Part shown: in pieces, positions 2,330 to 59,074 of the stretch
How the letters are laid out: each line of letters opens with the position of its first letter
How positions within the stretch are numbered: the stretch's first letter is position 1
Virus record (IMG/VR): IMGVR_UViG_3300048572_000043
Location: 37,857-101,856 of that record
Length of the DNA stretch: 64,000 nucleotides
Origin: a virus
Taxonomy: Duplodnaviria > Caudoviricetes
Direction: 5' to 3' (one strand)
Notes under the pieces: model-generated
What the model saw: the letters and a program-made list of their open reading frames with translations, nothing else
Databases searched by the model: none
What the model was told of the DNA's origin: nothing
Position numbers and translations under genes: made by a program

Positions 2330-2357
2330 TATAATTACCGTTTTACGCACAAACATT

Positions 2358-2748: not shown

Positions 2749-2785
2749 ATTATATTGTACTGAATTAAGTGTAAATTTCTAATAT

Positions 2786-4643: not shown

Positions 4644-4790
4644 TTATTTATATTAGACTATTCTTTATAAACAATCAAGAAAATAATTGACTTAAAAATA
4701 AAAAACATTTAATATATAATCTTATGGTTCAAACAATTATATGCATAGCGATAGGAATTGGAATAGCTATAAAATGGCATTTCTTTCAAA

Positions 4791-5686: not shown

Positions 5687-5689
5687 CAA

Positions 5690-6277: not shown

Positions 6278-6278
6278 T

Positions 6279-6872: not shown

Positions 6873-6893
6873 AAAAAGAGATACAATATAAAA

Positions 6894-35308: not shown

Positions 35309-35767
35309 ATGAAAATACTATGTAAAATATCCGTTTTGTTATTAGCCTCTTGGATTTTATTCAAGAGCGAAATCGCTTCTGGCACTAAATCAGTTGTATT
35401 TTATAAACCAGATGATACCTTACTTAAAGGAACTTTACCCAAAAAAGAAATTAAGGTTCGCCTAACTGCTTATTGGGCAAGAGGTTCTGATACAGATTCT
35501 TGGAGTGCCAAGAGGCAAAGCTCGACTGGTGCTACCCTTAAACCTAATAGGAGTGTTGCAGTAGACCCCAAGATTATACCTTACTTCTCAAAGCTCTATA
35601 TTCCTAATCTTGGATTTAGATTTGCTCACGATACTGGTACAGATGTTATTAGAAAGAAGGCTAGTCACGGCAAGTATCCAGTTGTTGATATTTTCTTTAT
35701 GACAGAAAAAGAAGCTATGAGATTTGTTAATAACAATCCTAAAGTAGTTAAAGTTGCTGTATATTAA
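35309..35767 (+). CDS. 3D-domain protein (peptidoglycan lytic transglycosylase-like)
   Basis: N-terminal signal/TM segment; LTAYW, VAVDPKIIP, AHDTG and VVDIFF (three Asp) motifs. Confidence 0.8.
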   Translation: MKILCKISVLLLASWILFKSEIASGTKSVVFYKPDDTLLKGTLPKKEIKVRLTAYWARGSDTDSWSAKRQSSTGATLKPNRSVAVDPKIIPYFSKLYIPNLGFRFAHDTGTDVIRKKASHGKYPVVDIFFMTEKEAMRFVNNNPKVVKVAVY

Positions 35768-43845: not shown

Positions 43846-45613
43846 TTTCTTTACTTATTTTTAATTTAGGTTATATTTATTAGATGACCACATATAAATA
43901 CATAGCAGACTATATAAATAAACCTACTATATTTTGTTATATTGTAGATTGTGTAGTAAATAACAATCCTTATTTGTTTACTGGCGAGTATAATAAAAAG
44001 TTACTAAATAAGAAAGTATGGATGGCTAAACAAGTGTTTCCTCATTGTGAACCAACGCAATATACTTATTTCAAGACATTCAAAGAAGCAAAAGACACAT
44101 TAAATAGATGGGGCGCGAAGTGGGAAAGGGTTTAATACTATGACATATAAAGAACTACTAAACAATCTAAATAATATGAATGAGTCTCAATTAAATAGTG
44201 ACTTAACTATACTAGAAGGTAATAATGAGTTCTATCAAGCTAAATTACTATTTGCTAATAGAGAAACCAATGATATTTTAGATAGCGAACATCCATTTAT
44301 TTGCAGAGTATAGTTGACAAAATAATAATTTAGATTATATTCTATTTATGACTAAAACATTCAAAATAGGCGAGACAGCACTTGGTGGAACTATCAAGGT
44401 AGTTATTCCTAAAACATTAACTACTATTAAGATAGATGTTATTTCTACTAACCATATTACCAGAGGTTCGTGTGATGCACCATACTTAATTAATCAGTAT
44501 ATCTATTATAGCTTTGATAGGATTCGAATCGAAAGAGATTTGTTTCAAATAGTAAGTGGTTACTGGTCAGATCAAATACTAGCATGGATTAATAAAAGCT
44601 GGCAAAGTCAATTAGCTAAAATATAATTTGACAATAATTCAATTTATCTTATATTGAATATATGAAATACACCATCATACTACAACAAGAAAGAATCTAT
44701 CAAGCAGAAGTTGAAGTCGAAGCAGACTCTCCAGAGGACGCAGAGGATATTGGATTGGAGAAAGTTAATGACGATGACTTTGAGGAAATTGATTGGACAT
44801 GTTCAGAAGCTATCAAAGTTATCCAACATAAATAATAATTGACAATAAATATAAAAGGAGTATATTAAAACTATGAACAACACCGAAAAACCCCTAAAGA
44901 AATTCACGATTCGTATGCAACGCAACCAAATCGCAGAAGTGGACATTGAGGTGGAGGCCACATCAGATGAGGAAGCGGTTGATAAGGCAACAGAGATGGC
45001 TGAGAATTGTACAGACGCAAATGGCTTTGCCCTTGAGTGGGATGAGGTTGATTATAACTTTGAAGCTATTGATGTCGAGGAAGAAGAGGAGGACGAAGAT
45101 GAAGTCTAGTGAGGAAATTGTAAAAGAAATCAATGATAGGATTGCAGAATATAAAGTTCTAGCGATGGATCACGATAATAACCAAGATGCTGTGGATGAA
45201 CTAGAAAGTGCAGTTCACGAACTAGCTCATCTATTGGAATGGATTAATGAGTAATGCACCTTTAATTTTTGCTATTATATTAAGTGTTGTTTTTGCTATT
45301 TATATATACTTTAGCTATAATGAATAAGATAATTAATTATATTATATGGATAGCTTTTGGCCTTGTTATATTTGGCTTATTAAGGTTATTTCTATGAACT
45401 TTGCACTAGATATACTAACAAATAAACCTGTAATATGCTTTGATGAATTGCTATATATTAAAAGCCAAATAGCAAATAGTGTAATAAGTAATAATGAAGA
45501 TACTAAAGAGTCTAGTTAATATAGTTTTATTTTTCTTATTATTTCCTCTGATATTATTAAGTGATATGATAAATGATGATTGACATAATTTTAATTTACT
45601 ATATTATGGGTAG

Positions 45614-46066
45614 ATGAAGTTAATCAATAGCACCTCTTATTGTTCTGAAAAGTTAAAAGAAATTATTAAATGGTGTATGCCAGATGGCGTGTTCCTTAAA
45701 GACATTAGAAAAATAGATTTTGGTAATACTAAATTAAATTGGCATGGCAGGGCTTGGGGAAGCATGAGGGTACATATTGGAGTGCCACGATATGGCAAGT
45801 ATCTTAGACCTTATAATACTGGTGGCAGAAGAGGCTATTTGAATGTAGAAACATATAGCTGGGAAGAAGGTTTAATTGAATTAATTGCTCATGAATTAAG
45901 ACACTTATATCAATATAAAAAGAATAAGTTCTTTCATGGTATTAAAAAGATAAGAAAATATAACATGGGTACTAGAGCTAAATTATGTGAAGTTGATGCT
46001 AGTTTATATGCAAAGAGGAAAGTAAGAGAGTATAGAAAGAGTAATTTTAAATTAAATTTAGTTTGA
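45614..46066 (+). CDS. Putative zincin-like metallopeptidase
   Basis: LIAHELRHLYQ (HExxH) with downstream EVDA. Confidence 0.6.
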   Translation: MKLINSTSYCSEKLKEIIKWCMPDGVFLKDIRKIDFGNTKLNWHGRAWGSMRVHIGVPRYGKYLRPYNTGGRRGYLNVETYSWEEGLIELIAHELRHLYQYKKNKFFHGIKKIRKYNMGTRAKLCEVDASLYAKRKVREYRKSNFKLNLV

Positions 46067-46067
46067 C

Positions 46068-46142
46068 TTAAGTAGTTGATTATTATATATTTATAGGGGC
46101 GGGGGCCCTGCGCGCGTAACTCGTTGATGGATAAGCACTTAC
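46068..46142. repeat. 75-bp double-palindrome element, copy 1
   Basis: 27-bp palindrome, 21-bp GC-rich spacer (GGGCCCTGC), 27-bp palindrome. Confidence 0.85.
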
Positions 46143-46248
46143 AACTATATCAAAAAACTTTAACAGGATTGGCAAGTAGCTGATTATTAGAATCTTATGA
46201 CACGAAAAAAGTTCTTGTCAGAGTTTAAAAGTGTGGTATGATTAACAT

Positions 46249-47106
46249 ATGGCTAGAACAACAAAACCCGCTCAAAGTGTATACGATTTCGATGTACACC
46301 AAGAGCCACTCCTCACAACAGACGGCAAGAGGACAGGATACTTCGGGATGGTACGCCGTGATACCCCCGAACCCATGACACTCGGAGTTTGCACCGAGCA
46401 GTATGGTGTGGTGAAAAATGCAGACCTCGTGACGATGGTCGAAGAGTCGCTATCGCAGAACAGTATGCTCGCTAATCACACTTCTAAGAAGTTCGTGGTT
46501 CGTGATGGATCCCGTTTCTACGCTAGCTACGACTTCACTGACTTCAAGACTGAGTTGAAGCCAGTTGGCAAGCGTGCGAAGGGAGACATTCTTGGTTTGC
46601 GATTGACTGTGAACAACAGTTATGATCGCTCCAGTCGTGTCTCGTTAACCCTCGGTTTCCTCCGTTTGGTTTGCACCAACGGCATGAAATCGTTGACCAA
46701 GGAATTCAGCATGACGAAGCGTCACACGCTCGCCGTGAATCTGGATTTCATTGGTGATGCATTGGCGAATGCAGTCTCCAGCGTTGACAACTCTGTGGCA
46801 ATCTTCAACAGGTTGGCGCAGAAGGCAATCAGCAATGAGCAGGGTTTAAACTTGCTCACCAAGCTGGAAGAGAAGGATGTGATCTCTGCCAAGGTGCGTG
46901 AAGGCATCGAAGCAGTGTGGCGCAACCCTTCTTACGAGGAAGATACTGATCGGAACCTGTACAATTTGTACAATGCTTCGACTCAGTTCCTGACTCGCAA
47001 CGTTGCAGATGAACGCTATGAGTATAGCGAGCGCATCAGTACTGACCTGCTCAAGGTCTTCTCAGGAAAAACTCGTGACGAAGAGCTCCTGAAGCTGGTC
47101 GCCTAA
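46249..47106 (+). CDS. DUF932/DUF945-family protein
   Basis: Y..V.N, NSYDRS, RLVCTNGM, H, NLYNLYNA.T motifs; noticeably higher GC than the rest of the window. Confidence 0.85.
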   Translation: MARTTKPAQSVYDFDVHQEPLLTTDGKRTGYFGMVRRDTPEPMTLGVCTEQYGVVKNADLVTMVEESLSQNSMLANHTSKKFVVRDGSRFYASYDFTDFKTELKPVGKRAKGDILGLRLTVNNSYDRSSRVSLTLGFLRLVCTNGMKSLTKEFSMTKRHTLAVNLDFIGDALANAVSSVDNSVAIFNRLAQKAISNEQGLNLLTKLEEKDVISAKVREGIEAVWRNPSYEEDTDRNLYNLYNASTQFLTRNVADERYEYSERISTDLLKVFSGKTRDEELLKLVA

Positions 47107-47125
47107 ACTAAAACGAAACTTTAAC

Positions 47126-47158
47126 AGAGGCGGAGGGCAGAACCCTCCGCTTCTTTTT
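47126..47158 (+). terminator. Rho-independent terminator
   Basis: AGAGGCGGAGGG/CCCTCCGCTTCT hairpin followed by a T-run. Confidence 0.85.
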
Positions 47159-47176
47159 GCTCAAATTGTATCATGC

Positions 47177-47251
47177 ATAAGTCGTTGAGTATCAAGCACT
47201 TACAGCGCGCGGGACCCTGCGTTTGTAACTCGTTATCTATTAAAGGTTTAC
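47177..47251. repeat. 75-bp double-palindrome element, copy 2
   Basis: ATAAGTCGTTGA-GTA-TCAAGCACTTAC, 21-bp spacer, GTAACTCGTTAT-CTA-TTAAAGGTTTAC. Confidence 0.9.
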
Positions 47252-47290
47252 AACCCTTGACATTTATATTATTTATGTTATAGTTATGAG

Positions 47291-47632
47291 ATGAAAGCAA
47301 AGCATAAAGTATATTATAATTTACATAAGAAGTGTTTATCTATTATGCTTCGTGGAAAAGTATTAGAGCATAGCACAGAATTCTTTTTGCGTGATGTTGA
47401 GTTTAGAGTTAGTCAAGCAGGGCGTTCCAGGGTTCTAAAGGAACAAAGAAAGAATGTTCATGCTTTTGTGTGTGGCACTCCAGATGATGGTTGGCCTATT
47501 GATCAAAATGAAAGAAAGGTAACCTATAATCCTTATAAGTTTAATAGTTTTGTTTATGCTGATACCCTTGAGCCAGTATATAAAGCTAAATGGGTTGGTG
47601 TTATTAATCGTGATATATTTGTCTTGAATTAA
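47291..47632 (+). CDS. Conserved phage hypothetical protein
   Basis: VYYNLHK, FRVSQAGR.RVL.E.RKNVHAFV.G and YNPYK motifs. Confidence 0.7.
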   Translation: MKAKHKVYYNLHKKCLSIMLRGKVLEHSTEFFLRDVEFRVSQAGRSRVLKEQRKNVHAFVCGTPDDGWPIDQNERKVTYNPYKFNSFVYADTLEPVYKAKWVGVINRDIFVLN

Positions 47633-47799
47633 AGTAAAAGTATAGTAGAATTATCTAATGGAAATTACCAAAGCCAAGAAACTAAAGGAGGGTGGTTATG
47701 CACTATACGCAACTGACCCTAAAACTAAAACTGAAACCCAAGTCGGATATATTGGAGAAGGTCTGACTTTGGAAGCGTGGCTTCCTAAAGGAGTAAAAA

Positions 47800-48186
47800 T
47801 TGAAAATTCTTGAAGAAACATTTACTAGCAGAGGATTTAAATTCACGATGGTTGGTCGTGATGGAGATGTTGCAATCTATAAAAAGAAACTCGATGAAGT
47901 AGACAGCGAAGCATATAACTATGAAGTGATTGCTATTAAGCGTCACAATGGATATGAGATTGCAGGTGTAAAGATGCCTCCAGCAGAAATGTATCCTAGC
48001 GATAGTCAATGGGGTGATTGGGCTTATACTTGTATTGATCGTGAAGATGCAGACAAGCGATTCGTTCAACTAAAAGAGAAACTATCAGCTTATGTTGCGA
48101 CATCAACTTTAGCTAATGGTGAAAAGCGTGGTCGTGGTCGGCCTCGTAAAATTGATTTGACAAAAACTGAACTTGTGGTATCATAA
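47800..48186 (+). CDS. Hypothetical protein with C-terminal AT-hook
   Basis: E.YPS..QWG motif; KRGRGRPRK AT-hook. Confidence 0.6.
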   Translation: MKILEETFTSRGFKFTMVGRDGDVAIYKKKLDEVDSEAYNYEVIAIKRHNGYEIAGVKMPPAEMYPSDSQWGDWAYTCIDREDADKRFVQLKEKLSAYVATSTLANGEKRGRGRPRKIDLTKTELVVS

Positions 48187-48614
48187 CACAATGACATATA
48201 AATGTGCAGTAAGCGGTGAAGCAATTTCACCAGAGAGAGTTGAGGCTCTGCAAGTCCTCGGCGTTCCAGAGAGTCAATGGACAAAGAAAGAACATAGTCA
48301 AACAAGAAAACTACGAGCTGTATATGCTGGTGATGATGGCAGTAATGACATCGTTATTTGTGATGCAGTAGATGGTGGCTCGATGTTTGATAATGCAGTA
48401 GCATTGGAGGTAGAAAATGAATCTTAAGTATATCGTTTTGAGAGATGGAATTCGTGTGAGTGAAGATATGCACTCGAAGATTGAAGATGCTGAACACGAA
48501 GCGGAGTTTTGGCGTAAAGTCATTCGCTCGTGGCCTGATGGAACGAAAGTTACCATCAAGAAAATCGGCGGATAACTTCGGAGGCCGACATTGAGCTACG
48601 GCTTGATGTTAGTT

Positions 48615-48705
48615 GCTAGGGTCGTCTAACTGGTTAAGACCCCACACTTATAATGTGGTCGCTCTAGATTTGGGCAAAATGTAGGTTCGAATCCTACCCC
48701 TAGTA
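48615..48705 (+). tRNA. tRNA with Ile(UAU) anticodon and a long (22-nt) variable region
   Basis: GCTAGGG/CCCTAGT acceptor, A discriminator, CCACA-CTTATAA-TGTGG anticodon arm, GCTC/GGGC variable stem, GTAGG-TTCGAAT-CCTAC. Confidence 0.85.
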
Positions 48706-48978
48706 TGATTATTATATGTAAGTCGTTGAGAATCATCTAATTATTTTTATTGACATTTTTTCAAAGTATTGTATATTTAACCTATGACAAACAAACAATC
48801 AGTTCCATTCTATGTGGTGAATGTGTTCGGTAAAGATCGAGCCATCATCCTAAACACCTCAATCCGTATGTGTACGCCAAAAGAAACTTGCTCTATCAGA
48901 GACTTGGAGAATATCGCCAAGGCTTTTGCAGTAGAGTTCTTTCAAGTACCAAAACCTTCTAGCTTTCCTGCCAAAGTG

Positions 48979-49050
48979 GGGCAAGTAGTTTAAAGGTGAA
49001 ACAGAGCACTCATAATGCTCCTAGTGCTGGTTCGAGTCCAGCCTTGCCCA
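48979..49050 (+). tRNA. tRNA with CAU anticodon (elongator Met or Ile2)
   Basis: GGGCAAG/CTTGCCC acceptor, GAGCA-CTCATAA-TGCTC anticodon arm, GCTGG-TTCGAGT-CCAGC; lacks initiator features. Confidence 0.88.
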
Positions 49051-49178
49051 CTTCTCCTTGTGCGGATTGGATGCTGAATTCTTATAGTAAGCATACTGAA
49101 ACAACTCAAGAAGATATAGAATGGTATTTTAACAACAAAAGCATTGACAACAAACAACAATAGGATAAACTACAAACT

Positions 49179-49565
49179 ATGAAACTAATCAAACAAAACC
49201 TCGGAGCACATTGGGTCATTGGAATCAAAGGCGAACCACAAAAAATCAGACAATATCACAACCGCATATATAATTGGGGTGGCACAAGTGGTAATCTAAA
49301 ATGGATGAGTAGTAACTTTGCTTATTTTTGGATTACTATGGAAAAGTTAGAGAGAGCTATGTTCAAGTATGTTATGAGTGGCGTAAGCGATAAACTTGGA
49401 AAAAAGTTTCGTGGTGCTAAAGGTGGATTAAAAGAAGTTGTTATGAATCGAGTAAAGAATACAATTAACAACATTCCAGTTGAGCATTTTCACAAAACAG
49501 CAGAGTCTCAAGACTTCTATTCTCTTGGCGTAATTTCTGCTGAAAAGTTAGATACTGACAGCTAA
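49179..49565 (+). CDS. Hypothetical protein, paralog of 56205-56660
   Basis: Shared IYNW.GT.G.L, KGGL and YSLG.ISAEK motifs. Confidence 0.7.
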   Translation: MKLIKQNLGAHWVIGIKGEPQKIRQYHNRIYNWGGTSGNLKWMSSNFAYFWITMEKLERAMFKYVMSGVSDKLGKKFRGAKGGLKEVVMNRVKNTINNIPVEHFHKTAESQDFYSLGVISAEKLDTDS

Positions 49566-49571
49566 AAAATC

Positions 49572-49644
49572 CGCCTAGTAGCCCAATGGCAGAGGCAAAC
49601 GACTTAAAATCGTTCAAGTGTCAGTTCGAGTCTGACCTAGGCGA
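49572..49644 (+). tRNA. tRNA-Leu(UAA) with a short variable loop
   Basis: CGCCTAG/CTAGGCG acceptor, AACGA-CTTAAAA-TCGTT anticodon arm, 5-nt variable loop, GTCAG-TTCGAGT-CTGAC. Confidence 0.88.
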
Positions 49645-49653
49645 AAACTTGTC

Positions 49654-49727
49654 GCTTCTATAACTCAACTGGACAGAGTAACAGATTTCTAATCTGTAAG
49701 TTGCAGGTTCGATTCCTGCTAGAAGCG
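49654..49727 (+). tRNA. tRNA-Arg(UCU)
   Basis: GCTTCTA/TAGAAGC acceptor, ACAGA-TTTCTAA-TCTGT anticodon arm, GCAGG-TTCGATT-CCTGC. Confidence 0.92.
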
Positions 49728-50130
49728 AAATATTTTCTCTAAATAAAAAATAATATGTAAAGTCTCTATGTGAGAAATGTTTTTGAGAAATTTGGTTTAG
49801 AGTTTTTCGTTTTGAGTTTAATGTTAATAATCTCTTGGGGTGGAATCGAAAAGATACTGAAAATTATAATTACACATCTAAAATAAGATTTGCCAAATAT
49901 CTAATAGGATATAATAAATAGTTGAAATATTTCTTAAATACTTGTAATATATATTGATATGAAAAGCGAAAACAGATTAAGCAAAATACTTGAGAAAAGA
50001 ATCTTAAGAGATGAAGATCCTAAGACCATAGCTCAAATAGATAAGTTCTTAAATAATTTAGAAGTTGTTTTCGTGAAGTGGGCTAAAGCTCATCCCAATT
50101 GGAAAGAATCAGAAGAATAATTAAACTGTT

Positions 50131-50208
50131 ATAAGTTACTGATACTCAAAGAGTTACAAAAGACGGATCCCTGCGCACGTAAGTCGTTGACCATCAACGA
50201 GATTTAAC
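50131..50208. repeat. 75-bp double-palindrome element, copy 3
   Basis: 21-bp spacer with GGATCCCTGC; right arm TCAACGAGATTTAAC faces the next promoter. Confidence 0.9.
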
Positions 50209-50565
50209 TAAAGATTTTTCTTGTGAAAAAACAAAGGTATGGTATATTTAACCTATGAACAAAATCAAAAACGCAGTTATATACTTAACCTCATATCTGA
50301 AACACTTCGTCCTTTTCCTTTTTGGGCAAAGGTATTTAATCGAATACAAACCTTACGGCAAGGATGATGTTTATACTTACATCATCAGCAAGCCTTCTTC
50401 TCATACCATCAGCAAGGCAGGGAATAAGCTATTCACTAGCTTCTGCTTTTCTGGTCGTATGGATTCTGGCGTGAAGCAATTCCGCTATGATAGAATTACT
50501 GGCGGTCTCTCACCAGTATAACAACAGAGAGAAAAGGGGCGTTTCTTTTTCTCCCCTCATATAGA

Positions 50566-50596
50566 AAGGGCGAGGAGTAAAATCCTCGCCTTTTTT
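50566..50596 (+). terminator. Rho-independent terminator
   Basis: AAGGGCGAGGA/TCCTCGCCTTT hairpin followed by a T-run. Confidence 0.85.
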
Positions 50597-50629
50597 ATTG
50601 CACATAAACAAAAGTATGTTAAGATAGTT

Positions 50630-50847
50630 TTAGTTCTTCGATATCAGAGAAGGTTGACCGCAAGGTTGCAGTTCTGGAAAGTTTCTAATGGAAACATTAG
50701 TTATATATAACGGAATGCCAATACTTCTCGAGCGAGCCTGACTAACTCCATAAGAGGATGAACCTGCCAACGCCCAGAGTCTGAGGCAAATTAAAAGAGC
50801 AGGGTATTTCCTTTACGAATCTAGAGCGTAAAGGGTCGAAGAACTAA
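50630..50847 (+). ncRNA. About 218-nt structured ncRNA candidate
   Basis: 12-bp terminal stem TTAGTTCTTCGA/TCGAAGAACTAA, internal GNRA hairpins, promoter TTGCAC-N16-TAAGAT upstream. Confidence 0.7.
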
Positions 50848-51023
50848 TTTTTATTACGCCATTTTTCTCTGTGATTGAAAACCCAACTTAACAGAGCTTT
50901 TTCAAAACCAATATCTTTGCCAGCTTTTTCGCTTTCGAGCCATTTGTGTTTTAAGATTTCATCTCGTTCTTCAATAAACTTTTTATACAACGCAGAAGTT
51001 TCAAGTAAACCAGATACCTTCAT
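50844..51023 (-). CDS. Short DUF4032-like protein (59 aa, not in ORF track)
   Basis: Manual translation ...SALYKKFIEERDEILKHKWLESEKAGKDIGFEKALLSW...HREKWR; GTGTA 9 nt upstream. Confidence 0.7.
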   Translation of the reverse strand: MKVSGLLETSALYKKFIEERDEILKHKWLESEKAGKDIGFEKALLSWVFNHREKWRNKN

Positions 51024-51061
51024 AACTTATATTACACTATATTGCTTTTAAATCAAGATTT

Positions 51062-51140
51062 TTATCTCTCTTATAGTCAAGGACTTACAACGCGAGGGTC
51101 CCTACAGTTCTAAGTCGTTGATATTCAATGAAATTTAAAT
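51062..51140. repeat. 75-bp double-palindrome element, copy 4
   Basis: TCAAGGACTTAC, 21-bp spacer (GGGTCCC), CTAAGTCGTTGA-TAT-TCAATGAAATTTAAAT. Confidence 0.85.
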
Positions 51141-51175
51141 GTAGACAAAAAACAAAATTCTGATATATTTAAGCT

Positions 51176-52012
51176 ATGAAAGTAAACGAAATTATCACCG
51201 AAAAGTTCATCGAAGCCCTCAACAAAGGAGTCATCCCTTGGCAGAAACCTTGGAAAGTTTTTGACCTATGCAACGGAGTTTCCAAAAAAGGTTATAGAGG
51301 CATCAATCAATTTTTACTTCGCATGGTCGCCTCTGATGATTTCTTTTTTACTTTTAATCAGATTAAAGAACTTGGCGGAAGAATCAAAAAAGGTGCAAAG
51401 TCCCATATGGTAGTTTATTACAAACTATTAAAGAAGAAAGATGATGAGTCAGGTGGCTTTCCTCTTATGAGATTCTATAAAGTTTTTGGTTTGAGTGATA
51501 TTGAGGGCATGAAGTGGAAACAGCCCGAAGTAAAGAAGTTGGATTTCTCACCAGTAGAAGAAGCAGAAAAGTTAATCAACAAGTGCGTGATTCAGATTAA
51601 GTATGGTGGCAGTCGTGCCTGTTACTATCCAGAAGATCACAAGATTGATTTGCCCCCAAAAGAAAATTTCAACAGCGTTGAGGAGTATTACTCGACAGCG
51701 TTCCATGAGATTGGCCACGCTATGCATAAAAGCACAGGTGATAATGTTAAGAATGGTTTTGGTTCTCAGAATTATAGCAAAGAGGAATTGACCGCAGAGA
51801 TTTTTGCGAGTCTTTGTCTTAACTTCTGTGGGATTGATTCTCAAAAATGTTTTAACAATTCTGCCAGCTATCTTTCCAGTTGGTTAGAAGTATTAAAAAA
51901 AGATACAAACTTTATCATCTCAGCTTCTAGTAAAGCACAAAAAAGATTTGACGCTTTCGTTGAGAGAAAAGAAAGCGAAGAGATTCAAGAAGAAGAAGTT
52001 GTAACTGCTTAA
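51176..52012 (+). CDS. ardC: ArdC-like antirestriction protein (ssDNA-binding domain plus zincin-like domain)
   Basis: PWQKPW, YRGIN, TFNQ...GG.IKKG.K, A.Y.P..H.I.LP...F, HEIGH, YSKEELTAE, SASYL.SW. Confidence 0.88.
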   Translation: MKVNEIITEKFIEALNKGVIPWQKPWKVFDLCNGVSKKGYRGINQFLLRMVASDDFFFTFNQIKELGGRIKKGAKSHMVVYYKLLKKKDDESGGFPLMRFYKVFGLSDIEGMKWKQPEVKKLDFSPVEEAEKLINKCVIQIKYGGSRACYYPEDHKIDLPPKENFNSVEEYYSTAFHEIGHAMHKSTGDNVKNGFGSQNYSKEELTAEIFASLCLNFCGIDSQKCFNNSASYLSSWLEVLKKDTNFIISASSKAQKRFDAFVERKESEEIQEEEVVTA

Positions 52013-52078
52013 GTATTAACTACTTACGCAAGCGGGGTCCCTGCCCTCGTAAGTCATTGATAGTCAATGAGATTTAAC
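52001..52078. repeat. 75-bp double-palindrome element, copy 5 (overlaps the ardC stop)
   Basis: GTAACTGCTTAA-GTA-TTAACTACTTAC, 21-bp spacer (GGGTCCCTGC), GTAAGTCATTGA-TAG-TCAATGAGATTTAAC. Confidence 0.9.
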
Positions 52079-52124
52079 TGTAAAAAAAACTTGTCACAAG
52101 AAAAAAAAGTGTTAATCTAATTCT

Positions 52125-52760
52125 ATGTTCAAAAACAAAAAACAAGCCGAAGAGATTGTTGGCACACTCTCAAAACCCTCGAAGATGCCTGGATATGCTT
52201 ATTCAACTCCTGCCAAGCGTTGTCTTATCGGGCAGAAAATGCGGAATGTTGTAGGAAGTATGTGTGCTTTTTGCTACGCTCTTAAAGGGCGTTATGTTTT
52301 CCCCAATGTTCAAAAAGCTATGGAAAAGCGTTTTGCTTCACTCACTCACGATCTTTGGGTGGAAGCTATGACATATCTTATCGGAAAGGTTAAGAATCCT
52401 TATTTTAGGTGGCACGATTCAGGAGACTTGCAAGGTGTGTGGCATATTGAAAAGATTGTGAAGATTGCAAAGAATCTTCCTAACATTTCTTTTTGGCTTC
52501 CAACTCGTGAATATGCTTTTGTCTCAACCTATATCGAACAAGGCGGTGAAGTACCTAGCAATCTCACCATTCGCCTTTCTGCTCTGATGATGGATGGCCC
52601 TGCACCCGTTGGAATTGCTCAAAGACTAGGCTTATGTGTTAGCGGTGCGAGCAAGTTAGGTAATTTTAATTGTCCTAGCTCTAAGCAAGGGAACAAGTGC
52701 GGAGATTGTCGCAAGTGTTGGGATAAGAATGAGTTTGCAATTAACTACAAAAAGCATTAA
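52125..52760 (+). CDS. Gp88-like Cys-rich phage protein (radical-SAM-like Cys motifs)
   Basis: LSKPSKMPG, C...C..CYA, FRWHDSGD, WLPTRE, P.NL.IR.S, CP...C..CR.CW. Confidence 0.7.
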   Translation: MFKNKKQAEEIVGTLSKPSKMPGYAYSTPAKRCLIGQKMRNVVGSMCAFCYALKGRYVFPNVQKAMEKRFASLTHDLWVEAMTYLIGKVKNPYFRWHDSGDLQGVWHIEKIVKIAKNLPNISFWLPTREYAFVSTYIEQGGEVPSNLTIRLSALMMDGPAPVGIAQRLGLCVSGASKLGNFNCPSSKQGNKCGDCRKCWDKNEFAINYKKH

Positions 52761-52993
52761 GATGTCTAGATGACATTAATCTTTTTAATTATAATTGGCA
52801 TAATCTTATCACTATTCATAACATACTAAAATGAAAATTGAAAAACTCTTAAACGAAAATCTAGAATCTTTTTATCCTTGGAGCGATTCTGATAATCCTC
52901 CACTCGATACAAACAAAAGTTTTGTAGAAAAGCAGAGAGAGATTGACGAAGTGTTCGAAGGTTGGCGAGCTAATATGTAAAAAACTTGCTGTT

Positions 52994-53068
52994 GTAAGTC
53001 GTTGACCATTAACGATTTACAGCCGCAGGGAGGTTGCCGCCGTAAGTCGTTGACTATCAGCGACTTAG
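52994..53068. repeat. 75-bp double-palindrome element, copy 6
   Basis: GTAAGTCGTTGA-CCA-TTAACGATTTAC, 21-bp spacer, GTAAGTCGTTGA-CTA-TCAGCGACTTAG. Confidence 0.92.
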
Positions 53069-53162
53069 CGATGATCTATAATTGATCTAATTAAAGCGTA
53101 AACTAATTGCACAAAAACCAAACTAAAGTATGCCCAAATGCATGTTAAAAAAATTTCCATAA

Positions 53163-53426
53163 TTATTCTCCACAGATTTCTGAATCACCAGCCCAACCAA
53201 AGTCTTCCATCTGGAAGCACCCGCCATTGTAATCCTCATCAGTGCCGTGGCCAGCAGAAGCCATAGCAGAGTCGAAGTCGCCATCCATAGAATCGTTTGG
53301 CTCGTCTGATGTTTCGGATTTGATAGCGCGATCATCTTCGCGCATCTCGTTAAGGATGTCGCGCACATCCTGCGAACCCAACATATGTTGAGCCATCCAC
53401 TCCTTCAGAGAAGCTTTGTAGTCCAT
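53163..53426 (-). CDS. Small acidic protein
   Basis: MDYKASL... with DGDFDSAMASAGHGTDEDY motif; start taken at 53426. Confidence 0.6.
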   Translation of the reverse strand: MDYKASLKEWMAQHMLGSQDVRDILNEMREDDRAIKSETSDEPNDSMDGDFDSAMASAGHGTDEDYNGGCFQMEDFGWAGDSEICGE

Positions 53427-53427
53427 A

Positions 53428-53592
53428 TTATTTGACCTCCACAATAGTTTCGCTGGAGTCGTAGACTCCAGACAACGCATCAAGCATCGAGTTAACTACA
53501 TCATTGGAATTGATGTAGTCAAAGAACGCATTAGCGTCCACATAGGCTTCCTCGCAGGTTTCCGTCGCTAGGGATGTGATTTGATTTGTCAT
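53428..53592 (-). CDS. Small acidic protein (54 aa, not in ORF track)
   Basis: Manual translation MTNQITSLATETCEEAYVDANAFFDYINSNDVV...; promoter-like sequence directly upstream. Confidence 0.55.
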   Translation of the reverse strand: MTNQITSLATETCEEAYVDANAFFDYINSNDVVNSMLDALSGVYDSSETIVEVK

Positions 53593-53644
53593 AAATTAAA
53601 TGTATCACAGATTATTTTTACCACAAGTTTTATTTTGCAAAAAA

Positions 53645-53905
53645 GGAAATAGAAGAATAGCTAATAGCAAATAGGAAATAGCCTAATACAAAATAGCCAA
53701 GATCTTTTCTTTTCATTCAGTTTTGTGCTGAAGATCGAGTTTGCGTAAGTCGTTGGTTATCAAGGGTTTGCGCGCGCGGGGGAGTGGCTCTTGTAAGTAA
53801 TTGATAATCAAGAGTTTAGATTTTAAGCGTTCATTCAGTTTTTGTCGTAAGATCAGTTTCGATCTTTTGCTTTCGTTCAGGTTTTGTCGTAAGATCAGAT
53901 TTTGT
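53645..53905. repeat. ORF-free tandem-repeat tract: AATAG heptad-period repeats and three TCRTTCAG..TTTGT....AAGATC repeats
   Basis: Six AATAG plus one AATAC at 53648-53696; three imperfect repeats at about 53713, 53831 and 53873; five GATC. Confidence 0.75.
53745..53819. repeat. 75-bp double-palindrome element, copy 7
   Basis: GTAAGTCGTTGG-TTA-TCAAGGGTTTGC, 21-bp spacer, GTAAGTAATTGA-TAA-TCAAGAGTTTAG. Confidence 0.88.
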
Positions 53906-53978
53906 AAGTTGTTGTTTATTAAGGGTTTATAGAATCAGCCTCCCTGCGCTCGTAAGTCGTTGATACTGAGTATCTTAC
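53904..53978. repeat. 75-bp double-palindrome element, copy 8
   Basis: 21-bp spacer ending TCCCTGCGCTC, then GTAAGTCGTTGA-TAC-TGAGTATCTTAC. Confidence 0.85.
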
Positions 53979-54111
53979 AAGAGGTCTCGAAGATTCAAAC
54001 ACACGGCTGAAACATAGTAAAAAAATCTCTCTCGCAAAAAGTTTTTCTGCTCACCATTTTTTATAGCGAGTCTATAAGTTTTTTTATTTAGTTTGAAAAG
54101 TATTTTTTTCA

Positions 54112-54513
54112 TTAGTCTCCTTTGTAACTTCCAGCTTCGTTATAGCTTTGAAAGATTCGGTTTGAAACTTTCATCGCTTCTTCAACTTCTTGTAGAAGTG
54201 CGATGCTTCCTTTTACTTTTTTAACTTCCACAACATCGAGGAGAGAAGTCATCCCAACGATGCCAGCACCATTCATTCCCCTGAACGAGAGGAAAAGAAT
54301 GTTTTTGAGGAAAGGCAAGGTGTCGTAAGTATTCGCAGAATCTTCCACGAACAAAACTTCACTACCTTTCGAGGTTGTTATTTCGATGAAGTCACCAATC
54401 TGAATGTTGAGACTTTTGAAAAGTTCAGCCTTTTCTGCTGTGAGTTTAGCTTTTTGAGCCAAGTGAGCTTTTTGAGCTTCGATTTCTTTTTGTTTTCTTT
54501 TTTCGTATGTCAT
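54112..54513 (-). CDS. Hypothetical protein
   Basis: ORF track; own TTTGACA-type promoter upstream on the minus strand. Confidence 0.6.
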   Translation of the reverse strand: MTYEKRKQKEIEAQKAHLAQKAKLTAEKAELFKSLNIQIGDFIEITTSKGSEVLFVEDSANTYDTLPFLKNILFLSFRGMNGAGIVGMTSLLDVVEVKKVKGSIALLQEVEEAMKVSNRIFQSYNEAGSYKGD

Positions 54514-54877
54514 ATCTTTAATCTATCATACTTTCTTATTTTGTCAAACTTTTTTTTTCTTTGATTATCAACGATTTAGCGATACCAGACAAGAGAATCT
54601 GTATCGACATTATACAATCCGCTACGAAGGTAAATGGTTGTCCACTTACCTTTATCCTCACCTTCGAGGATTTCAGCAGTTGCAGTCATAGTTTTCCAAC
54701 CTATTGTGGAAGGAAAAATCTTTACGAGTAGTCTTTCGTGACCATATCGAAAAGTATTTTCATCTGTAGTTAGTTCTTTATTTATTGTTATCATTTTATT
54801 TTTTCTTTCTTTGTTATTTCTTATCTTGTTATAAGTATAGTTTAGCATATTTTAGAGAAAACGCAACAAAAATCTTT

Positions 54878-54956
54878 ATTTAAATTTCATTGACCATCAA
54901 CGATTTGCAACGCAAGGGTCCCTGCCGTCGTAAGTCATTGGTATCCAACAACTTAC
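54878..54956. repeat. 75-bp double-palindrome element, copy 9
   Basis: ATTTAAATTTCATTGA-CCA-TCAACGATTTGC, 21-bp spacer (GGGTCCCTGC), GTAAGTCATTGG-TAT-CCAACAACTTAC. Confidence 0.9.
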
Positions 54957-55747
54957 ATCAACTAATTTTGTCAAACTCCAAACTTGTTACGATATTGATT
55001 ATATAGGTTTTGATATTCTTCGCCCCATTCTGATTCACCAGCTTGGGCGATAGCTTCTTCAATTTCTTTAAGTTGTTTTTGACCTCTGCGATAGTAGTAT
55101 GAGTCTTCACTCATTTGGTAAGTCCAATCGTGATTCTTTAAGAGTTCTTCAAATTGTTGAATGTTCATTTATTTATTTTCCTTTACTAGTTTAGCATTGT
55201 TAAGGTTGATAGTTCCAACCTTATCTTTATCTTTACCTTCAAGGAAGGTTACAACTGCAGTATTAGCAGAAGTTTTATAAGAAACTTTTACTAAAGTTCC
55301 TTCGTATAGGTAAATTTCACCAAAGTAAGTTGGTGTATTGTTAGAGTTAGTTATGATGGATTCAGTAGTATCCATATTTTTTCGCATATTTTCACGCATT
55401 TGTTTTCGTTGAAAATTCCAGTTTATCATTCTATGAGTCATTTTATTTTTTCTTTCTTTGTTATTTGTTATCTTTTATCTTATGTATATAGTTTACCACA
55501 ATTCCTGCAAAAGTCAAATTATTTTCTTCATTTATTTTTCGTTGATTATCATAGAGTTATGATGAGCAACTTCAACTTTGTGTTCGTATTTCGAGAAACT
55601 TTCATCGAGTCTCTTTTGGGATTCTTCAACGGCTTTTTTGAGGTCAGCCGAGGCTTTGTCTAAATTTCCGAGGAGGATTTCTAATTTTGTTTTTCTTTTC
55701 ATACCTATAATTTATCACATTTTAGAAATTTTGCAAGATATTTTTTC

Positions 55748-55826
55748 ATTTAAATCTCGTTGATCATCAAGGAGTTACAACGCAAGGGAGCCCGCCTCCG
55801 TAAGTCGTTGGTATTCAGCTACTTAC
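55748..55826. repeat. 75-bp double-palindrome element, copy 10
   Basis: ATTTAAATCTCGTTGA-TCA-TCAAGGAGTTAC, 21-bp spacer, GTAAGTCGTTGG-TAT-TCAGCTACTTAC. Confidence 0.9.
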
Positions 55827-56200
55827 AACTTATAAAACTTGTGGTTGCGTATTGTAGCCACTAGCTTTGCGTCTCTAGCCCACTTAGGAGCGACGCTGAT
55901 GGCGTGGTAATGGTTTGCACCCTTCACAATGCTCTGAAGCTGTTTATGCACCACTAGGTCAGCAAGGTATAGAGCGTTCTTACCTTGTGCTGTAGCTAAT
56001 AGCTTTCTCTTAGTTGCTTCACTTACTCCACCATTCCAGAAGCTGAATTGCTTAGGTGATAAGCACACTTGGCTAGCTGATTGCTTACGCTCTATCATCC
56101 TTGTTTGGATAACGCTAGCAACACCAGCCATACCTTCTATACCTTCGCCCCTAGCTTCACCTAGTATCGTAAGTGCTACAATGAATAGTTCTGCTGTCAT
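55823..56200 (-). CDS. Cell wall hydrolase (SleB/CwlJ, Hydrolase_2 family)
   Basis: TILGEARGEG..GM..VA.VI..R, QFSFWN, GANHYH, PKWA and I.NH.FY motifs. Confidence 0.88.
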   Translation of the reverse strand: MTAELFIVALTILGEARGEGIEGMAGVASVIQTRMIERKQSASQVCLSPKQFSFWNGGVSEATKRKLLATAQGKNALYLADLVVHKQLQSIVKGANHYHAISVAPKWARDAKLVATIRNHKFYKL

Positions 56201-56204
56201 ACTA

Positions 56205-56660
56205 TTAGTCCCTTCCGTTGCTTACTGCACCGCAGTAGTCGCTAGGTTTCTCTGCACTGATAGTGCCAAGGCTATATCCTTCGGAGCTAGTCGCACCCCA
56301 AAGGAAGCAAGTCTGTGCCATCTCATCGATGACACTCTGTGCCTTTGCTTTTGCAAGGTCGAGCAGTCCACCTTTGCGTCCCTTAGCGTTGATCTTATTG
56401 ACCAAGCTATGCAACGCAACTTTAGTAAGAGCTTTCATCACATCATCTGGATGAGCGTAGAAGTAAAACGCTTTGCCGTTGCCCATATCGTGCAACTTGC
56501 CGTTAGTTCCTTCCCAATTATAAATTGAATTGAAGAAGTGATTGATTTGTTTGATGCTTCCTTCGAGAAGGTAAGCATTGTTTTCGCCGAAGGTTTGGTA
56601 ACTGATTTTGAGGTTTTGTTTCATAGGTTGTATATTGCCTTTCTGTTTATGTTTCGTCAA
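56205..56660 (-). CDS. Hypothetical protein, paralog of 49179-49565
   Basis: Shared IYNWEGTNGKL, GRKGGLL and YSLGTISAEK motifs. Confidence 0.7.
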   Translation of the reverse strand: MTKHKQKGNIQPMKQNLKISYQTFGENNAYLLEGSIKQINHFFNSIYNWEGTNGKLHDMGNGKAFYFYAHPDDVMKALTKVALHSLVNKINAKGRKGGLLDLAKAKAQSVIDEMAQTCFLWGATSSEGYSLGTISAEKPSDYCGAVSNGRD

Positions 56661-57287
56661 CTATTATTTTTTAGATGTTACCATAGCATATATTCCGATA
56701 AGAATAGTTACAATGGTAAGAACAAAGATGATTTCTATTTGATTCATTTAGTCATCGCTTCCTGATGGATAGCTTCCACCTTGTTAGCGTGAGCGTCAAG
56801 AGTAGCGATGGCCTTGGTAGAGGCATCCTTAAGCTCTTGGCTAGCCTTGTTGAGGTTGGCGATGAGTTGTTCATACTTACTTAGTTTTTTCTTCATAGAG
56901 TTAATCTATCACAGAATAGGAATATCACAAGATATTTCTTCAGTTAAATTTCATTGATTGATAACGACTTAGAGATGGTCGTATACCCCTACCCCTTTTT
57001 ATTTCTCAAGAGGATACCCTATTTTTGAAAAAGTTGGAGAGTCCTCATTTGCAATTCACTCGCGGGGGTACTATCTTCAATCTCCACATTATTTTAATAT
57101 GTTATCTATTTATCCTTTTATTTAAATAAATATAAACTATATCTCTTATCTATATATACCCCTACCCCTTTTCTTAAAATCTATAAAAAATCAATAAAAA
57201 AGAATATCTCTAGAGGTCAAAATTTCCGCTGGGCTATTTTTGTTATAGAGTGTTTTTTATATACTCTATTTGTGTGTAATAAATCAT

Positions 57288-58076
57288 ATGGATTTAAGAC
57301 GAGGATACTGCTGTTTAAATTGCACAGCCCCAGGAAATTGCTGTGGAGAATGTGAAGAGTGTCCATCTTGTTGTGATGGTTGTAGGGATATGGATGACTG
57401 CACCCATGCCGAAATCGAAATAGCGCGTTCGGTTTTTAAGGGGAGTGCATATTTTAAAGATGATAAGTTTTATCTAAATTTTACTAGCAGTTCTCTTTCT
57501 ACCCTGGCATATGACTGGAGCGATGACTATGCTGGGCACATATCTTATAGTAATACTAACTCTATTTATGACAGCAAAACAGATGAATGTTTGTCTTCTG
57601 GATTAAGCCGTGGAGTTAATTATAACTATGAGTTAGAGTACGCTGTTAGTAATATTAATTGTAGTAAAGGCATATGTGTCGATTGTAGTTGTACTAATGA
57701 CGATCCATGTTGGGCATGTGAGCCTTCACCAGGCGCTCGAGCGTCACTAGGCTGCTGTGGTTCAGGTTGTTGTGGTGGGTCTTACCCTAGTACCTGTAGT
57801 GCCTTCTGTGTTGATGATACATGTGAAAATTTTAATCATGGATGCCGTGGAGTAGTACCATGTGCTTGTGAGGATGAATATGACCAATGCGAGGGTGATT
57901 ATGAGGCAGTAAACACAGGAACCGTTACTTTTTATGATGAAGTAAGACTTTATAATCGTCTAGGAGAAGAGGTTGGAAATATTATAGGTGCTAGTTATGA
58001 TCCATGTGATCCATGCGCAACATGGAGCGCTCCAGGTTGTCACTTCTTTGCACCACCACAACAACCACCACCATAA
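57288..58076 (+). CDS. Cys-rich protein, YCCLNCT...GCHFFAP family, copy 1
   Basis: About 32 Cys in 262 aa; ATG 57288 lies 9 nt after GTGTA; both ends shared with the next gene. Confidence 0.75.
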   Translation: MDLRRGYCCLNCTAPGNCCGECEECPSCCDGCRDMDDCTHAEIEIARSVFKGSAYFKDDKFYLNFTSSSLSTLAYDWSDDYAGHISYSNTNSIYDSKTDECLSSGLSRGVNYNYELEYAVSNINCSKGICVDCSCTNDDPCWACEPSPGARASLGCCGSGCCGGSYPSTCSAFCVDDTCENFNHGCRGVVPCACEDEYDQCEGDYEAVNTGTVTFYDEVRLYNRLGEEVGNIIGASYDPCDPCATWSAPGCHFFAPPQQPPP

Positions 58077-58097
58077 ACTTTTCGTGTAATAATTTTT

Positions 58098-58838
58098 ATG
58101 ACCCCCAAAGAAGCGTACTGCTGTTTGAACTGCACTAATTTACCACCCTGTAATGCAGCCGCTGGTAATTGCGTGCCTTGTTGTGCCGATTGTGGAGATA
58201 CTAGCGGATGTTTATCATCAGCATATTTTGGTAAAGATGATCAAATCTATAAAGGATATGTTGCTACTTATTTTGCTTGGGGCACACAATACAATTGGCT
58301 TGTAGATCAAGAGTTTGAAAGCGCGTCTTGGAATGGCACATATAACTCTTTAACAAATGAAAAACTTGTATTTGGATTTAGCACTTTTAATTCATGGAAT
58401 GGACAAGATGAATGTGGTGGGGGTCCAGAAGAATTTTACAACAAGAGAACAGATACATATAGTGGAAAAACTGCTACGGGGACAACATCAGTCAGAGGTG
58501 CTTGTAGTGATTGTTTTGATTGTGAAGATCCAGATCTCTGTTCATATCCTAACTCTAAATATTTATTTCAATGCGGTTGCACTTGTGAACAAGTATTCAA
58601 CGATACATTCCCACTTGACCTTCCATTTTTGCCAATAGTAGATGCATCTGCTCCGTCTTGTAATATGTTTAAAGATGCCACGCATGATAGCGGTGGAACT
58701 GTTACATTTATAATTCCATTAAAAACTTATAATGATCGAGGAGAAATTGTTGCAGATCCTACTCCTGGCACAGCATATAACCCATGTAACCCAATAAGAA
58801 CAGCAACTGCTGCTGGCTGTCATTTCTTTGCACCATAA
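58098..58838 (+). CDS. Cys-rich protein, YCCLNCT...GCHFFAP family, copy 2
   Basis: About 20 Cys in 246 aa; own GTGTA motif. Confidence 0.75.
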   Translation: MTPKEAYCCLNCTNLPPCNAAAGNCVPCCADCGDTSGCLSSAYFGKDDQIYKGYVATYFAWGTQYNWLVDQEFESASWNGTYNSLTNEKLVFGFSTFNSWNGQDECGGGPEEFYNKRTDTYSGKTATGTTSVRGACSDCFDCEDPDLCSYPNSKYLFQCGCTCEQVFNDTFPLDLPFLPIVDASAPSCNMFKDATHDSGGTVTFIIPLKTYNDRGEIVADPTPGTAYNPCNPIRTATAAGCHFFAP

Positions 58839-59074
58839 ATAATAACAACTATGAAAATAAACTTAAAAACAATATCATTAATAGCTATCCTTGGTAGCTT
58901 ATTCTACTTCTTAAGTCACAAGAATAAAACTATCAAATCAACAGCGCCAGTCATTATAGAAGAAATAGTACTTGATAAAAAAACAAATAGCGAAAAACCA
59001 ATAGCGCCAAAGGTTTGTATTTCTGCTCCTCAAACTCAAAACGGTTTAGAATTAGGAAACAATTGGAAAAGTAG

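Follow-up and report, generated by a model that had tools for sequence, protein, structure and literature searches.

Extragenic palindromes in inverted pairs at a fixed distance are known from bacteria as bacterial interspersed mosaic elements (BIMEs), repetitive integration host factor-binding palindromes (RIPs) and REPINs (doublets of repetitive extragenic palindromic, or REP, sequences); one BIME class combines palindromic units with a site for integration host factor (IHF), and the stems of REP sequences are taken to fold. IHF itself is classically met with at origins, attachment sites and sigma-54 promoters. On phage Mu, IHF is described as having specific sites and acting on the early promoter Pe (PMC3820752), while sigma-54 promoters are described with IHF sites at -42 to -79 (PMC3897727). 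T4-like phages carry promoter early stem-loops (PeSLs), promoter/stem-loop cassettes described as shuffling genes, with homologous recombination between the repeats as the proposed route (PMC4122927). For the Stenotrophomonas phage DLP6, 25 'phage promoters' predicted with PHIRE are reported, 22 of them in twos ahead of gene clusters (PMC5349666). Here we analyse an array of ten double palindromes in a 64,000-nucleotide window, the final 64 kb of the linear, 101,856-bp IMG/VR record IMGVR_UViG_3300048572_000043 (Caudoviricetes; estimated completeness 64%). Judging from their sequence, the elements are probably promoter-upstream protein-binding cassettes akin to PeSLs and to IHF-assisted promoters, with a distinctive and widely conserved double-dyad anatomy. 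A preliminary description, made from the window alone, had presented them as an undescribed system; this was overstated, since pairs of what appears to be the same half-site are in print as the DLP6 'phage promoters' (PMC5349666) and PeSLs are known (PMC4122927).

The window was scanned with the 27-mer GTAAGTCGTTGA-N3-TCAACGACTTAC, allowing at most 9 mismatches over the 24 arm positions. Ten palindrome pairs and five single palindromes were found, all within 46068-56972, the same set as had been listed in the preliminary description. Most of the positions given there were exact, but two doubles (54878 and 55748) were 4 bp out of register with the mapped elements at 54882 and 55752, and three singles were off by 3 to 7 bp. 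The two palindromes of a pair start 48 bp apart in all ten doubles, without exception, giving a 27-21-27 bp layout of 75 bp overall. The palindrome has the consensus YGTAASTCGTTGA-N3-TCAACGASTTACR, 27 to 29 bp long, and the 21-bp spacer is GC-rich, as already remarked, with GGGWCCC exactly at its centre. In the scan alignment, the outer arm of the promoter-proximal palindrome regularly gives way to an A/T tract (AAATTT), and the elements are oriented along the gene direction.

A chance origin of the array is ruled out by shuffle counts and by the clustering of half-sites. Full palindromes with at most three mismatches occur 4 times in the window and not once in 100 shuffles, and 26 of the 29 half-sites with at most two mismatches in the entire 101,856-bp record fall in window 46068-56972. 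At the loose threshold (at most 9 of 24), 26 of 32 matches lie within the cluster, one of which (52323, inside a gene) is probably due to chance. The six matches outside it are at the level of shuffled windows (3 to 16 each), and all 15 mapped elements lie inside it, in agreement with the earlier remark that no copy was noticed beyond 46-57 kb.

The element recurs in uncultured relatives. A search of IMG/VR with a 16-base pattern yielded at least 119 stretches; at our threshold, two or more palindromes are present in 85 of these loci, a single one in 27 and none in 7. Pair spacing is constant in each lineage and differs between lineages (34 to 60 bp). After deduplication, the main classes are 50 bp (113 pairs from 43 loci) and 48 bp (60 pairs from 13 loci), and classes of 58, 51, 53, 41/42 and 34 bp are also encountered. 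The claim that spacing never varies is thus correct for this genome, where all ten pairs have 48 bp, but does not extend to relatives, which have other fixed spacings. Spacers are similar inside a lineage and unlike in both length and sequence between lineages. The carriers form a clade of phages of 130 to 172 kb with a DnaE-like polymerase. In all five relatives whose genomes were analysed (four of them complete; polymerase 43 to 94% identical to that of the record) the sites are clustered, in one region of 10 to 15 kb in four genomes and in two clusters in G006, with 10 to 25 repeats per genome. T4 kinship of the carriers could be discarded, as gp23 was found in none of the 14 array-bearing records searched and only in three records with a single, probably chance, pattern match. 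No close cultured relative was recovered from the phage collection, either by megablast with the 11-kb region or by blastn with the best element, and the polymerase of the record has only matches of at most 32% identity there. Sequencing runs holding the sequence are labelled freshwater, lake-water or plain metagenome. The labels of two array-bearing contigs binned into metagenome-assembled genomes (Cellvibrionales and Enterobacterales) were not used for host assignment, binning of phage contigs being unreliable.

Twelve promoters in the window stand in register with a palindrome, which bears out the proposed partitioning of the region into promoter-gene cassettes: the centre of the proximal palindrome lies upstream of the first -35 base by 19 bp in five cases and by 29 or 30 bp in seven, two distances that differ by one helical turn. 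The 19-bp distance is found at the double palindrome 47177..47251 (pair 47177/47225, plus strand; -35 TTGACA at 47257, ATG at 47291, L5 gp82-like gene), at the single 48718..48744 (plus strand, directly after tRNA-Ile; TTGACA at 48750, ATG at 48784) and at the single 54553..54579 (minus strand; TTGACA at 54547, ATG at 54513). It recurs twice at the double 51062..51136 (51062/51110), which lies between divergent promoters, each 19 bp from the nearer centre: TAGACA at 51142 rightward, with the ATG of an ArdC-like gene at 51176, and TTGATT leftward, with a minus-strand ATG at 51023. Four doubles have their proximal centre 29 bp from the -35 box. Two are on the plus strand, 50131..50205 (50131/50179; TTGTGA at 50221, ATG at 50255) and 52001..52075 (52001/52049; TTGTCA at 52091, ATG at 52125, Gp88-like gene), and two on the minus strand, 54882..54956 (54882/54930; promoter read by eye as TTGCGT, 16 nt, TAAACT) and 55752..55826 (55752/55800; TTGCAA at 55736, ATG at 55702). 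At 30 bp stand three singles: the degenerate 46172..46198 (plus strand; -35 TTGTCA at 46215, -10 TATGAT, ATG of the DUF932 gene at 46249), 55534..55560 (minus strand; TTGACT at 55517, gene with a leader) and 56946..56972, at the head of the minus-strand block (minus strand; TTGTGA at 56929, ATG at 56896). The first of these follows the double 46068..46142 (46068/46116, plus strand), whose outer left arm is degenerate and whose spacer is aggggcgggggccctgcgcgc.

The same phasing is seen across the 48-bp-class loci, where distances from centre to -35 box peak at 19 (17 cases), 29-30 (12), 67 (8) and 77 bp (6); minor peaks outside the two-phase pattern are found at 43 (6), 73 (3), 25 (2) and 52 bp (2). 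Relative to the promoter, proximal sites are thus centred near -54 or -64, and distal sites 48 bp further up, at about -102 or -112. The in-register promoters are of the sigma-70 type, most of them with a TTGACA-like box, 16 to 17 nt and a TATAAT-like box often preceded by TG, and they would be active early. At most of them the ATG lies about 6 nt past the -10 box, so that cassettes probably open with a leaderless gene; internal cassette genes have AGGAGG-type ribosome sites, and a leader is present in two genes of the minus strand. Outside the array the record has about 40 comparable units of promoter and ATG, none of them with a palindrome upstream (best score 9 to 14 mismatches). Because so many like promoters lack it, the palindrome marks a subset of promoters and is not part of the promoter itself. 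Such palindrome-free units (TTGACA, 16-17 nt, TATAAT, ATG about 6 nt on) can be seen, for example, at window positions 6859, 16780, 18269, 22804, 31297, 42189, 44314 and 45580, and their layout suggests that leaderless first genes are the rule in the phage of this record.

Repeats of this shape might act as folded nucleic acid, either as terminator/promoter cassettes of the PeSL type folding in RNA, with a part in termination, processing or the protection of 3' ends, or as cruciforms extruded from supercoiled DNA. Pairing was analysed in 581 distinct palindromes from this genome and the related loci, and in 265 element pairs. Among the 581 palindromes, Watson-Crick pairs between arms equal the expectation under independence at all 13 arm positions; at position 5/23, 270 were observed for 263.6 expected (200 G.C, 114 G.G, 88 C.C, 70 C.G). 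In the 265 pairs, observed and expected counts were 2493/2487 for the inner arms across the spacer, 2232/2248 for the outer arms, and 2353/2331 and 2374/2359 within each of the two palindromes. Compensatory arm change, the criterion used for structured repeats of the REP/REPIN type, was thus found neither in the 581 palindromes nor in the 265 pairs. This indicates that selection acts on the sequence of the arms and not on their pairing, which points to a dyad-symmetric protein site on duplex DNA. The array elements share with BIMEs the inverted palindrome pairs, the fixed distance and, for one BIME class, a link to IHF sites (putative ones here), but the arrangement is reversed: in BIMEs the GC-rich palindromes lie outside and the IHF site inside, and here pairing is not conserved.

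The spacer has 64 to 94% GC in genomes of 31 to 39% GC, where measured. In the 58-bp class its core, CGACCCC-loop-GGGGTCG with TTTTG after it on one strand, is shaped like an intrinsic terminator, and in DLP6 the GC hairpins with T run that follow a motif pair are listed as predicted terminators (PMC5349666). The best-preserved double of the window, 52994..53068 (52994/53042; two mismatches per 27-mer), sits at the convergent junction of the plus-strand and minus-strand gene blocks, which speaks for a structural role. Most of the array region is covered by contigs from four lake metatranscriptome libraries, with a depth that falls from 75-339 (three of four runs) to 0-16 across 47126-47251; as these runs consist of contigs only, neither contig ends and depth nor gaps in coverage fix the ends of transcripts, and the libraries may contain DNA. 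None of the seven terminator-like sites listed by a scan of 45000-58000 falls inside an element; one of them, an intrinsic terminator at 47126-47154, stands apart from the 47177 element, just ahead of it. The GC core in the window has partial dyad symmetry and no T run. Central self-complementarity of the spacers exceeds that of shuffles, but it is no better within a copy than between spacers of different loci, which argues against copy-specific pairing. Together with the lack of covariation, this makes folding in RNA or DNA an improbable explanation. A known RNA family was also ruled out as the identity of the elements: an Rfam search of 44000-59000 with E values up to 0.1 gave four tRNAs as the only convincing matches, a fifth match, Plastid-ycf2, scoring 38.3 bits for a gathering score of 65.7 and lying over tRNA-Arg on the opposite strand.

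The arms resemble the IHF consensus. Information content in the palindrome is highest at TCAA and at TTA, which are separated by 4 bp; 82% of sites have W at the centre, and in 53% the base before TCAA is A. The palindrome can be described as the IHF consensus WATCAANNNNTTR on both strands, sharing the central W: the consensus half-site TWATCAACGASTTAC contains the IHF consensus, given as WATCARxxxxTTR in PMC3897727, and most arms fail only at the WA prefix. Strict matches to WATCAANNNNTTR number 20 in the window, 9 of them in arms, where about 2 would be expected for 11 of 64 kb, and the four arms quoted in the preliminary description as exact matches are all exact. Distal sites are symmetric, and promoter-proximal ones carry the A/T tract in place of the outer arm. 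As at Mu Pe and sigma-54 promoters, the sites stand upstream of the promoter core; known IHF sites, however, are asymmetric and single, with an A/T-rich 5' part and four free middle bases, whereas the present ones are doubled dyads paired at a fixed distance around a GC core, 10 to 25 times per genome.

We favour, with a probability of roughly one half, sites for a host bending protein of the IHF/HU type flanking a GC-rich core, as an architecture upstream of promoters. Each element would be a composite regulatory cassette on double-stranded DNA, both palindromes serving as dyad-symmetric binding sites, most likely for a host member of the IHF/HU family. Two sharp bends around a stiff 21-bp GC core could fold the upstream DNA, and this folding may set the palindrome promoters apart by activation, by relief of silencing on DNA of 31% GC, or by insulation from read-through. 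A phage-encoded binder of the same family was not found: PF00216 (HU/IHF) is absent from the record, from the five relatives (four complete) and from the complete DLP6 genome. DLP6 carries the same half-site, as described below, and BLASTP found no small DNA-binding protein common to it and the clade; a host factor is thus the simpler reading.

The half-site TCAACGACTTA of the array also heads operons in the cultured T4-like Stenotrophomonas phage DLP6, whose terminator table was the sole relevant match to the element sequence in literature text (PMC5349666). At least 12 copies of TGTAAAATCAACGACTTA occur there. They are repeated in the same direction at a distance of 25 bp, and a GC hairpin with T run and a -10 box come after them. 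The reported PHIRE 'phage promoters' appear to be this same half-site motif. What DLP6 has in common with the array is the half-site, its arrangement in twos ahead of a GC hairpin and a -10 box, and its place at the start of gene clusters. They differ in that DLP6 has direct repeats whose 5' flank is A-rich, with both copies on the same side of the hairpin and the pairs distributed over about 110 kb of a T4-like genome, and in that the published account reads the motif pairs as promoters (PMC5349666). BLASTP of DLP6 against G003, a close relative of the record, gave only nine open reading frame (ORF) matches: a helicase, two ribonucleotide reductase subunits, PhoH, terminase, dCMP deaminase, SleB, a sulfotransferase and DUF6915, the last being the one small ORF common to DLP6 and the clade.

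In bacteria, the exact 10-3-10 palindrome was found in 33 stretches. A tRNA or tmRNA gene lies within about 35 nt of it at 11 of the 30 loci scanned, and at two loci an integrase gene lies on the far side of the palindrome from the tRNA gene. One Akkermansia genome (L184-L193) has 11 sites with at most three mismatches, for none with the reversed control; they are intergenic, upstream of dnaA, argS and other promoters. One of these palindromes lies 17 bp upstream of TGGCACggcgtTTGCA, which we read as a putative sigma-54 promoter. The Akkermansia copies often adjoin a second palindrome (TGTTCCACATGGAACA or ACAGCATT..AATGCTGT).

Several observations weigh against IHF as the binder. Only 9 of 50 arms match the strict consensus, and the excess of strict matches over the whole window is modest (20 for 11.4 expected, standard deviation 3.6; 3 of 100 shuffles reach 20). 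When 510 sites were chosen on the IHF-core positions alone, the four bases that are 'N' in the consensus proved to be C in 60%, G in 72%, A in 86% and S in 88%, with conserved flanks, so the site is more specific than the E. coli IHF consensus and would fit a dedicated reader equally well. Nor could heterodimeric IHF fill both overlapping consensus sites of one palindrome, and the DLP6 half-sites are only 25 bp apart; the case for a symmetric site draws on the geometry of the IHF-DNA structure. Three elements (52994, 53745 and 53904) have no promoter in register, and the GC-rich core has no explained role. Ortholog elements are not more conserved than their surroundings (arms 84 to 93%, spacer 80%, flanks 92 to 93%), although this flat conservation is compatible with redundant sites under weak selection or with copying among themselves. 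In other Verrucomicrobiota the motif is sporadic, with one site in each of 6 of 60 further genomes for 1 with the control. Many of the 33 bacterial matches are perfect hairpins with T runs after tRNA genes; these may be ordinary terminators that match by chance, as perfect hairpins occur far more often than in random sequence.

The same specificity might instead reflect operators of a dedicated, sequence-specific regulator other than IHF/HU, whether a phage protein that turns this promoter subset off or up at the switch to a phage sigma-like factor or another host factor; in that case the GC core, specific to each lineage, might be another operator that co-evolves with the first. The half-site is informative at some 13 positions, four of which are bases ignored by E. 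coli IHF, and the spacers, alike within a lineage and divergent in length and sequence between lineages, would fit such a pair of operators. In G003 and G008 the array lies directly upstream of a module coding for PhoH, a basic zinc-ribbon protein, a Sigma70_r2-like protein, an ERCC4-like protein and terminase; the module is located between array and terminase at G003 140662-144674, at G008 75793-79692 and from 60555 onward in the window. PhoH, zinc-ribbon and Sigma70_r2-like families were found in 22, 19 and 18 of 60 array loci, respectively, and the Sigma70_r2-like protein (24.3 bits for a cut-off of 24) suggests that the phage may have a sigma-like factor of its own. However, none of the proteins searched with Pfam, from 20 ORFs of the array region (45.6-56.7 kb), seven further downstream (57.3-62.8 kb) and ten others conserved in the clade, has a recognisable DNA-binding domain. 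DLP6 has the half-site and, by BLASTP, no homologue of the zinc-ribbon or sigma-like protein, and the 11 sites in the Akkermansia chromosome lie upstream of housekeeping genes. We consider a dedicated regulator less likely, but an alternative to be taken seriously. On balance the IHF/HU-type architecture put forward in the preliminary description has indirect support: the missing hairpin covariation, the symmetric IHF consensus, the helical register and the bacterial contexts speak for it, but the four conserved N bases go beyond the E. coli consensus.

A bolder and rather doubtful proposal can also be made. The 29-bp dyad could be the high-affinity site of a widespread, so far unassigned bacterial bending or nucleoid protein, for example a homodimeric IHF-like one, reading about 13 bp per half-site and used in several phyla at housekeeping promoters and possibly at origins and attachment sites. 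It would have been recruited independently by the DnaE-polymerase clade and by the T4-like DLP6, and, with the lineage-specific GC core, would form insulated plug-in cassettes for anti-defence and host-takeover genes.

The preliminary description had also suggested that the elements are recombination junctions that shuffle cassettes, and the relative G003 (polymerase 94% identical) could be compared with the array region for this purpose. The two are collinear with 86 to 94% identity, and about nine junctions were found between 45.5 and 59 kb. About four lie at elements, where roughly 16% would be expected by chance (the share of sequence within 30 bp of an element). At the 51062 site, G003 has, as read by eye, two element copies with a small minus-strand ORF between them, and the window one hybrid copy. 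The doubles 53745..53819 (53745/53793) and 53904..53978 (53904/53952), which share a 500-bp intergenic region with other direct repeats, are a tandem duplication in the window and a single copy in G003, and one RNA-library contig links 53776 to 53952, leaving one element instead of two. At 55534, G003 carries an extra 88 bp or so beside the element, and at 56946 a 1.86-kb window stretch starting at 56983, just right of the element, is replaced by 264 bp in G003. Counting the other way, about five of the nine junctions lie away from elements, at a plain promoter (one), after the tRNA cluster or inside cassettes.

Two further features of this region were noticed. In the 500-bp intergenic stretch (window 53600-54110), each tandem element is preceded by a direct repeat (TTCATTCAGTTTTGT..AAGATC...), of which G003 and one RNA-library contig have one unit. 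The small minus-strand genes 54576-54848 and 55169-55441 have near-identical upstream sequences, and RNA-library contigs of two runs jump from 54790 to 55165, a variant minus one cassette.

Element-bounded indels and duplications, together with fixed-size inverted-repeat doublets in intergenic DNA, would also be expected of mobile units, such as repeats resembling REPINs or miniature inverted-repeat transposable elements, or of crossover sites for a dedicated recombinase. That no recombinase is visible had been noted before and is confirmed: serine and tyrosine recombinases (PF00239 and PF00589) were found in none of five genomes, four of them complete, the positive controls being detected in 12 and 14 of 14, which speaks against a dedicated site-specific system. 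Enzymes of the serine and tyrosine recombinase type make even-numbered staggered cuts, to which a 3-bp centre is unsuited. No target-site duplications were seen when the G003 junctions were read by eye, and the register with promoters is not what random insertion would produce. Mobility or site-specific crossover therefore appears very improbable, and the exchanges are best explained by homologous recombination between dispersed repeats. The idea of recombination junctions survives in this altered form, resting on the junctions at elements and on the contig joining two of them. In the proposed mechanism, dispersed 75-bp units would be substrates for phage homologous recombination, a process in keeping with the UvsX-like recombinase encoded in the record, leading to gain, loss and duplication of cassettes much as with PeSLs.

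The likeness to PeSLs extends to the unit itself. Both are short and composite, a stem-loop or GC-rich dyad being placed immediately ahead of an early promoter that resembles the sigma-70 type (PMC4122927); in PeSLs the stem-loop terminates transcription. In the window twelve sigma-70-type promoters, presumably early ones, stand in register. Both are repeated between small non-essential genes in a hyperplastic region with indels and replacements between close relatives (PMC4122927). Among the differences, two conserved palindromes of 27 to 29 bp flank the GC core here and their arms do not covary; PeSLs are described as ending with a Shine-Dalgarno sequence and start codon (PMC4122927), whereas most first genes here are probably leaderless; and the present carriers are not T4-like (gp23 in 0 of 14), have a DnaE-like polymerase and, in the window, have cores without a T run.

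The RNA libraries gave two observations on the array region. Contigs have their first base at 46257-46259 (in two runs adapter immediately precedes 46259), 8 to 10 nt past the predicted leaderless ATG of the DUF932 gene, which is only a hint of a transcript start. A plus-strand intergenic stretch at window 50630-50845 has a promoter-like TTGCAC...TAAGAT upstream, a 13-bp closing stem with a T run and a fold z-score of -3.05, and gave no Rfam match at E up to 0.1. Summed contig depth in the bin 50642-51075 reaches 2181 to 3192 in three of the four libraries, with adapter directly before 50648; this stretch is probably an abundant non-coding RNA.

As to gene content, plus-strand genes extend as far as 52980 in the array region and minus-strand genes run from 56896 down to about 53123. 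The cassettes code for the DUF932 protein, the L5 gp82-like protein, an ArdC-like anti-restriction protein, the Gp88-like protein, a SleB-type hydrolase, four tRNAs and many small ORFans. The tRNA-Ile (anticodon TAT) is unusually long, with 93 nt at window 48614-48706 and 92 nt in DLP6 (104738-104829). A 128-residue protein encoded at 47800-48186 (plus strand) ends in RGRGRPRK, which Pfam scores weakly as an AT-hook (E 0.036, short of the cut-off), and may bind A/T-rich DNA in the minor groove. The record as a whole (31% GC) codes for a DnaE-like polymerase, a DnaB-like helicase, a UvsX-like recombinase, ribonucleotide reductase, DNA ligase, rIIA and several glycosyltransferases, and no structural genes were identified among the ORFs scanned. 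One gene (G000 34324-35316; L010:14324-15316, minus strand) matches phrog_1211 (E 6.7e-65), labelled 2-aminooxy adenylosuccinate synthetase in PHROGs, and we read it as PurZ-like. It occurs together with the DnaE-like polymerase and many glycosyltransferases (a second interval belonging to this observation is 4513-7116), a combination that hints at modified phage DNA, possibly with 2-aminoadenine.

If our reading is correct, an abundant clade of freshwater phages (130 to 172 kb, with no cultured member in the phage collection searched) tags one set of its promoters with a conserved DNA signal. This signal would provide a sequence handle for the early and anti-defence gene set in metagenomic phage contigs, which here includes the ArdC-like and DUF932 genes, and the palindrome would be a ligand with which to fish out the binding protein. 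The paired 'phage promoters' of DLP6 could be tested for the same role. The PeSL concept, in which regulatory cassettes double as recombination modules, would reach beyond the T4-like phages. Should an unassigned bending protein prove to be the reader, the elements would represent a kind of modular promoter architecture that is still undescribed.

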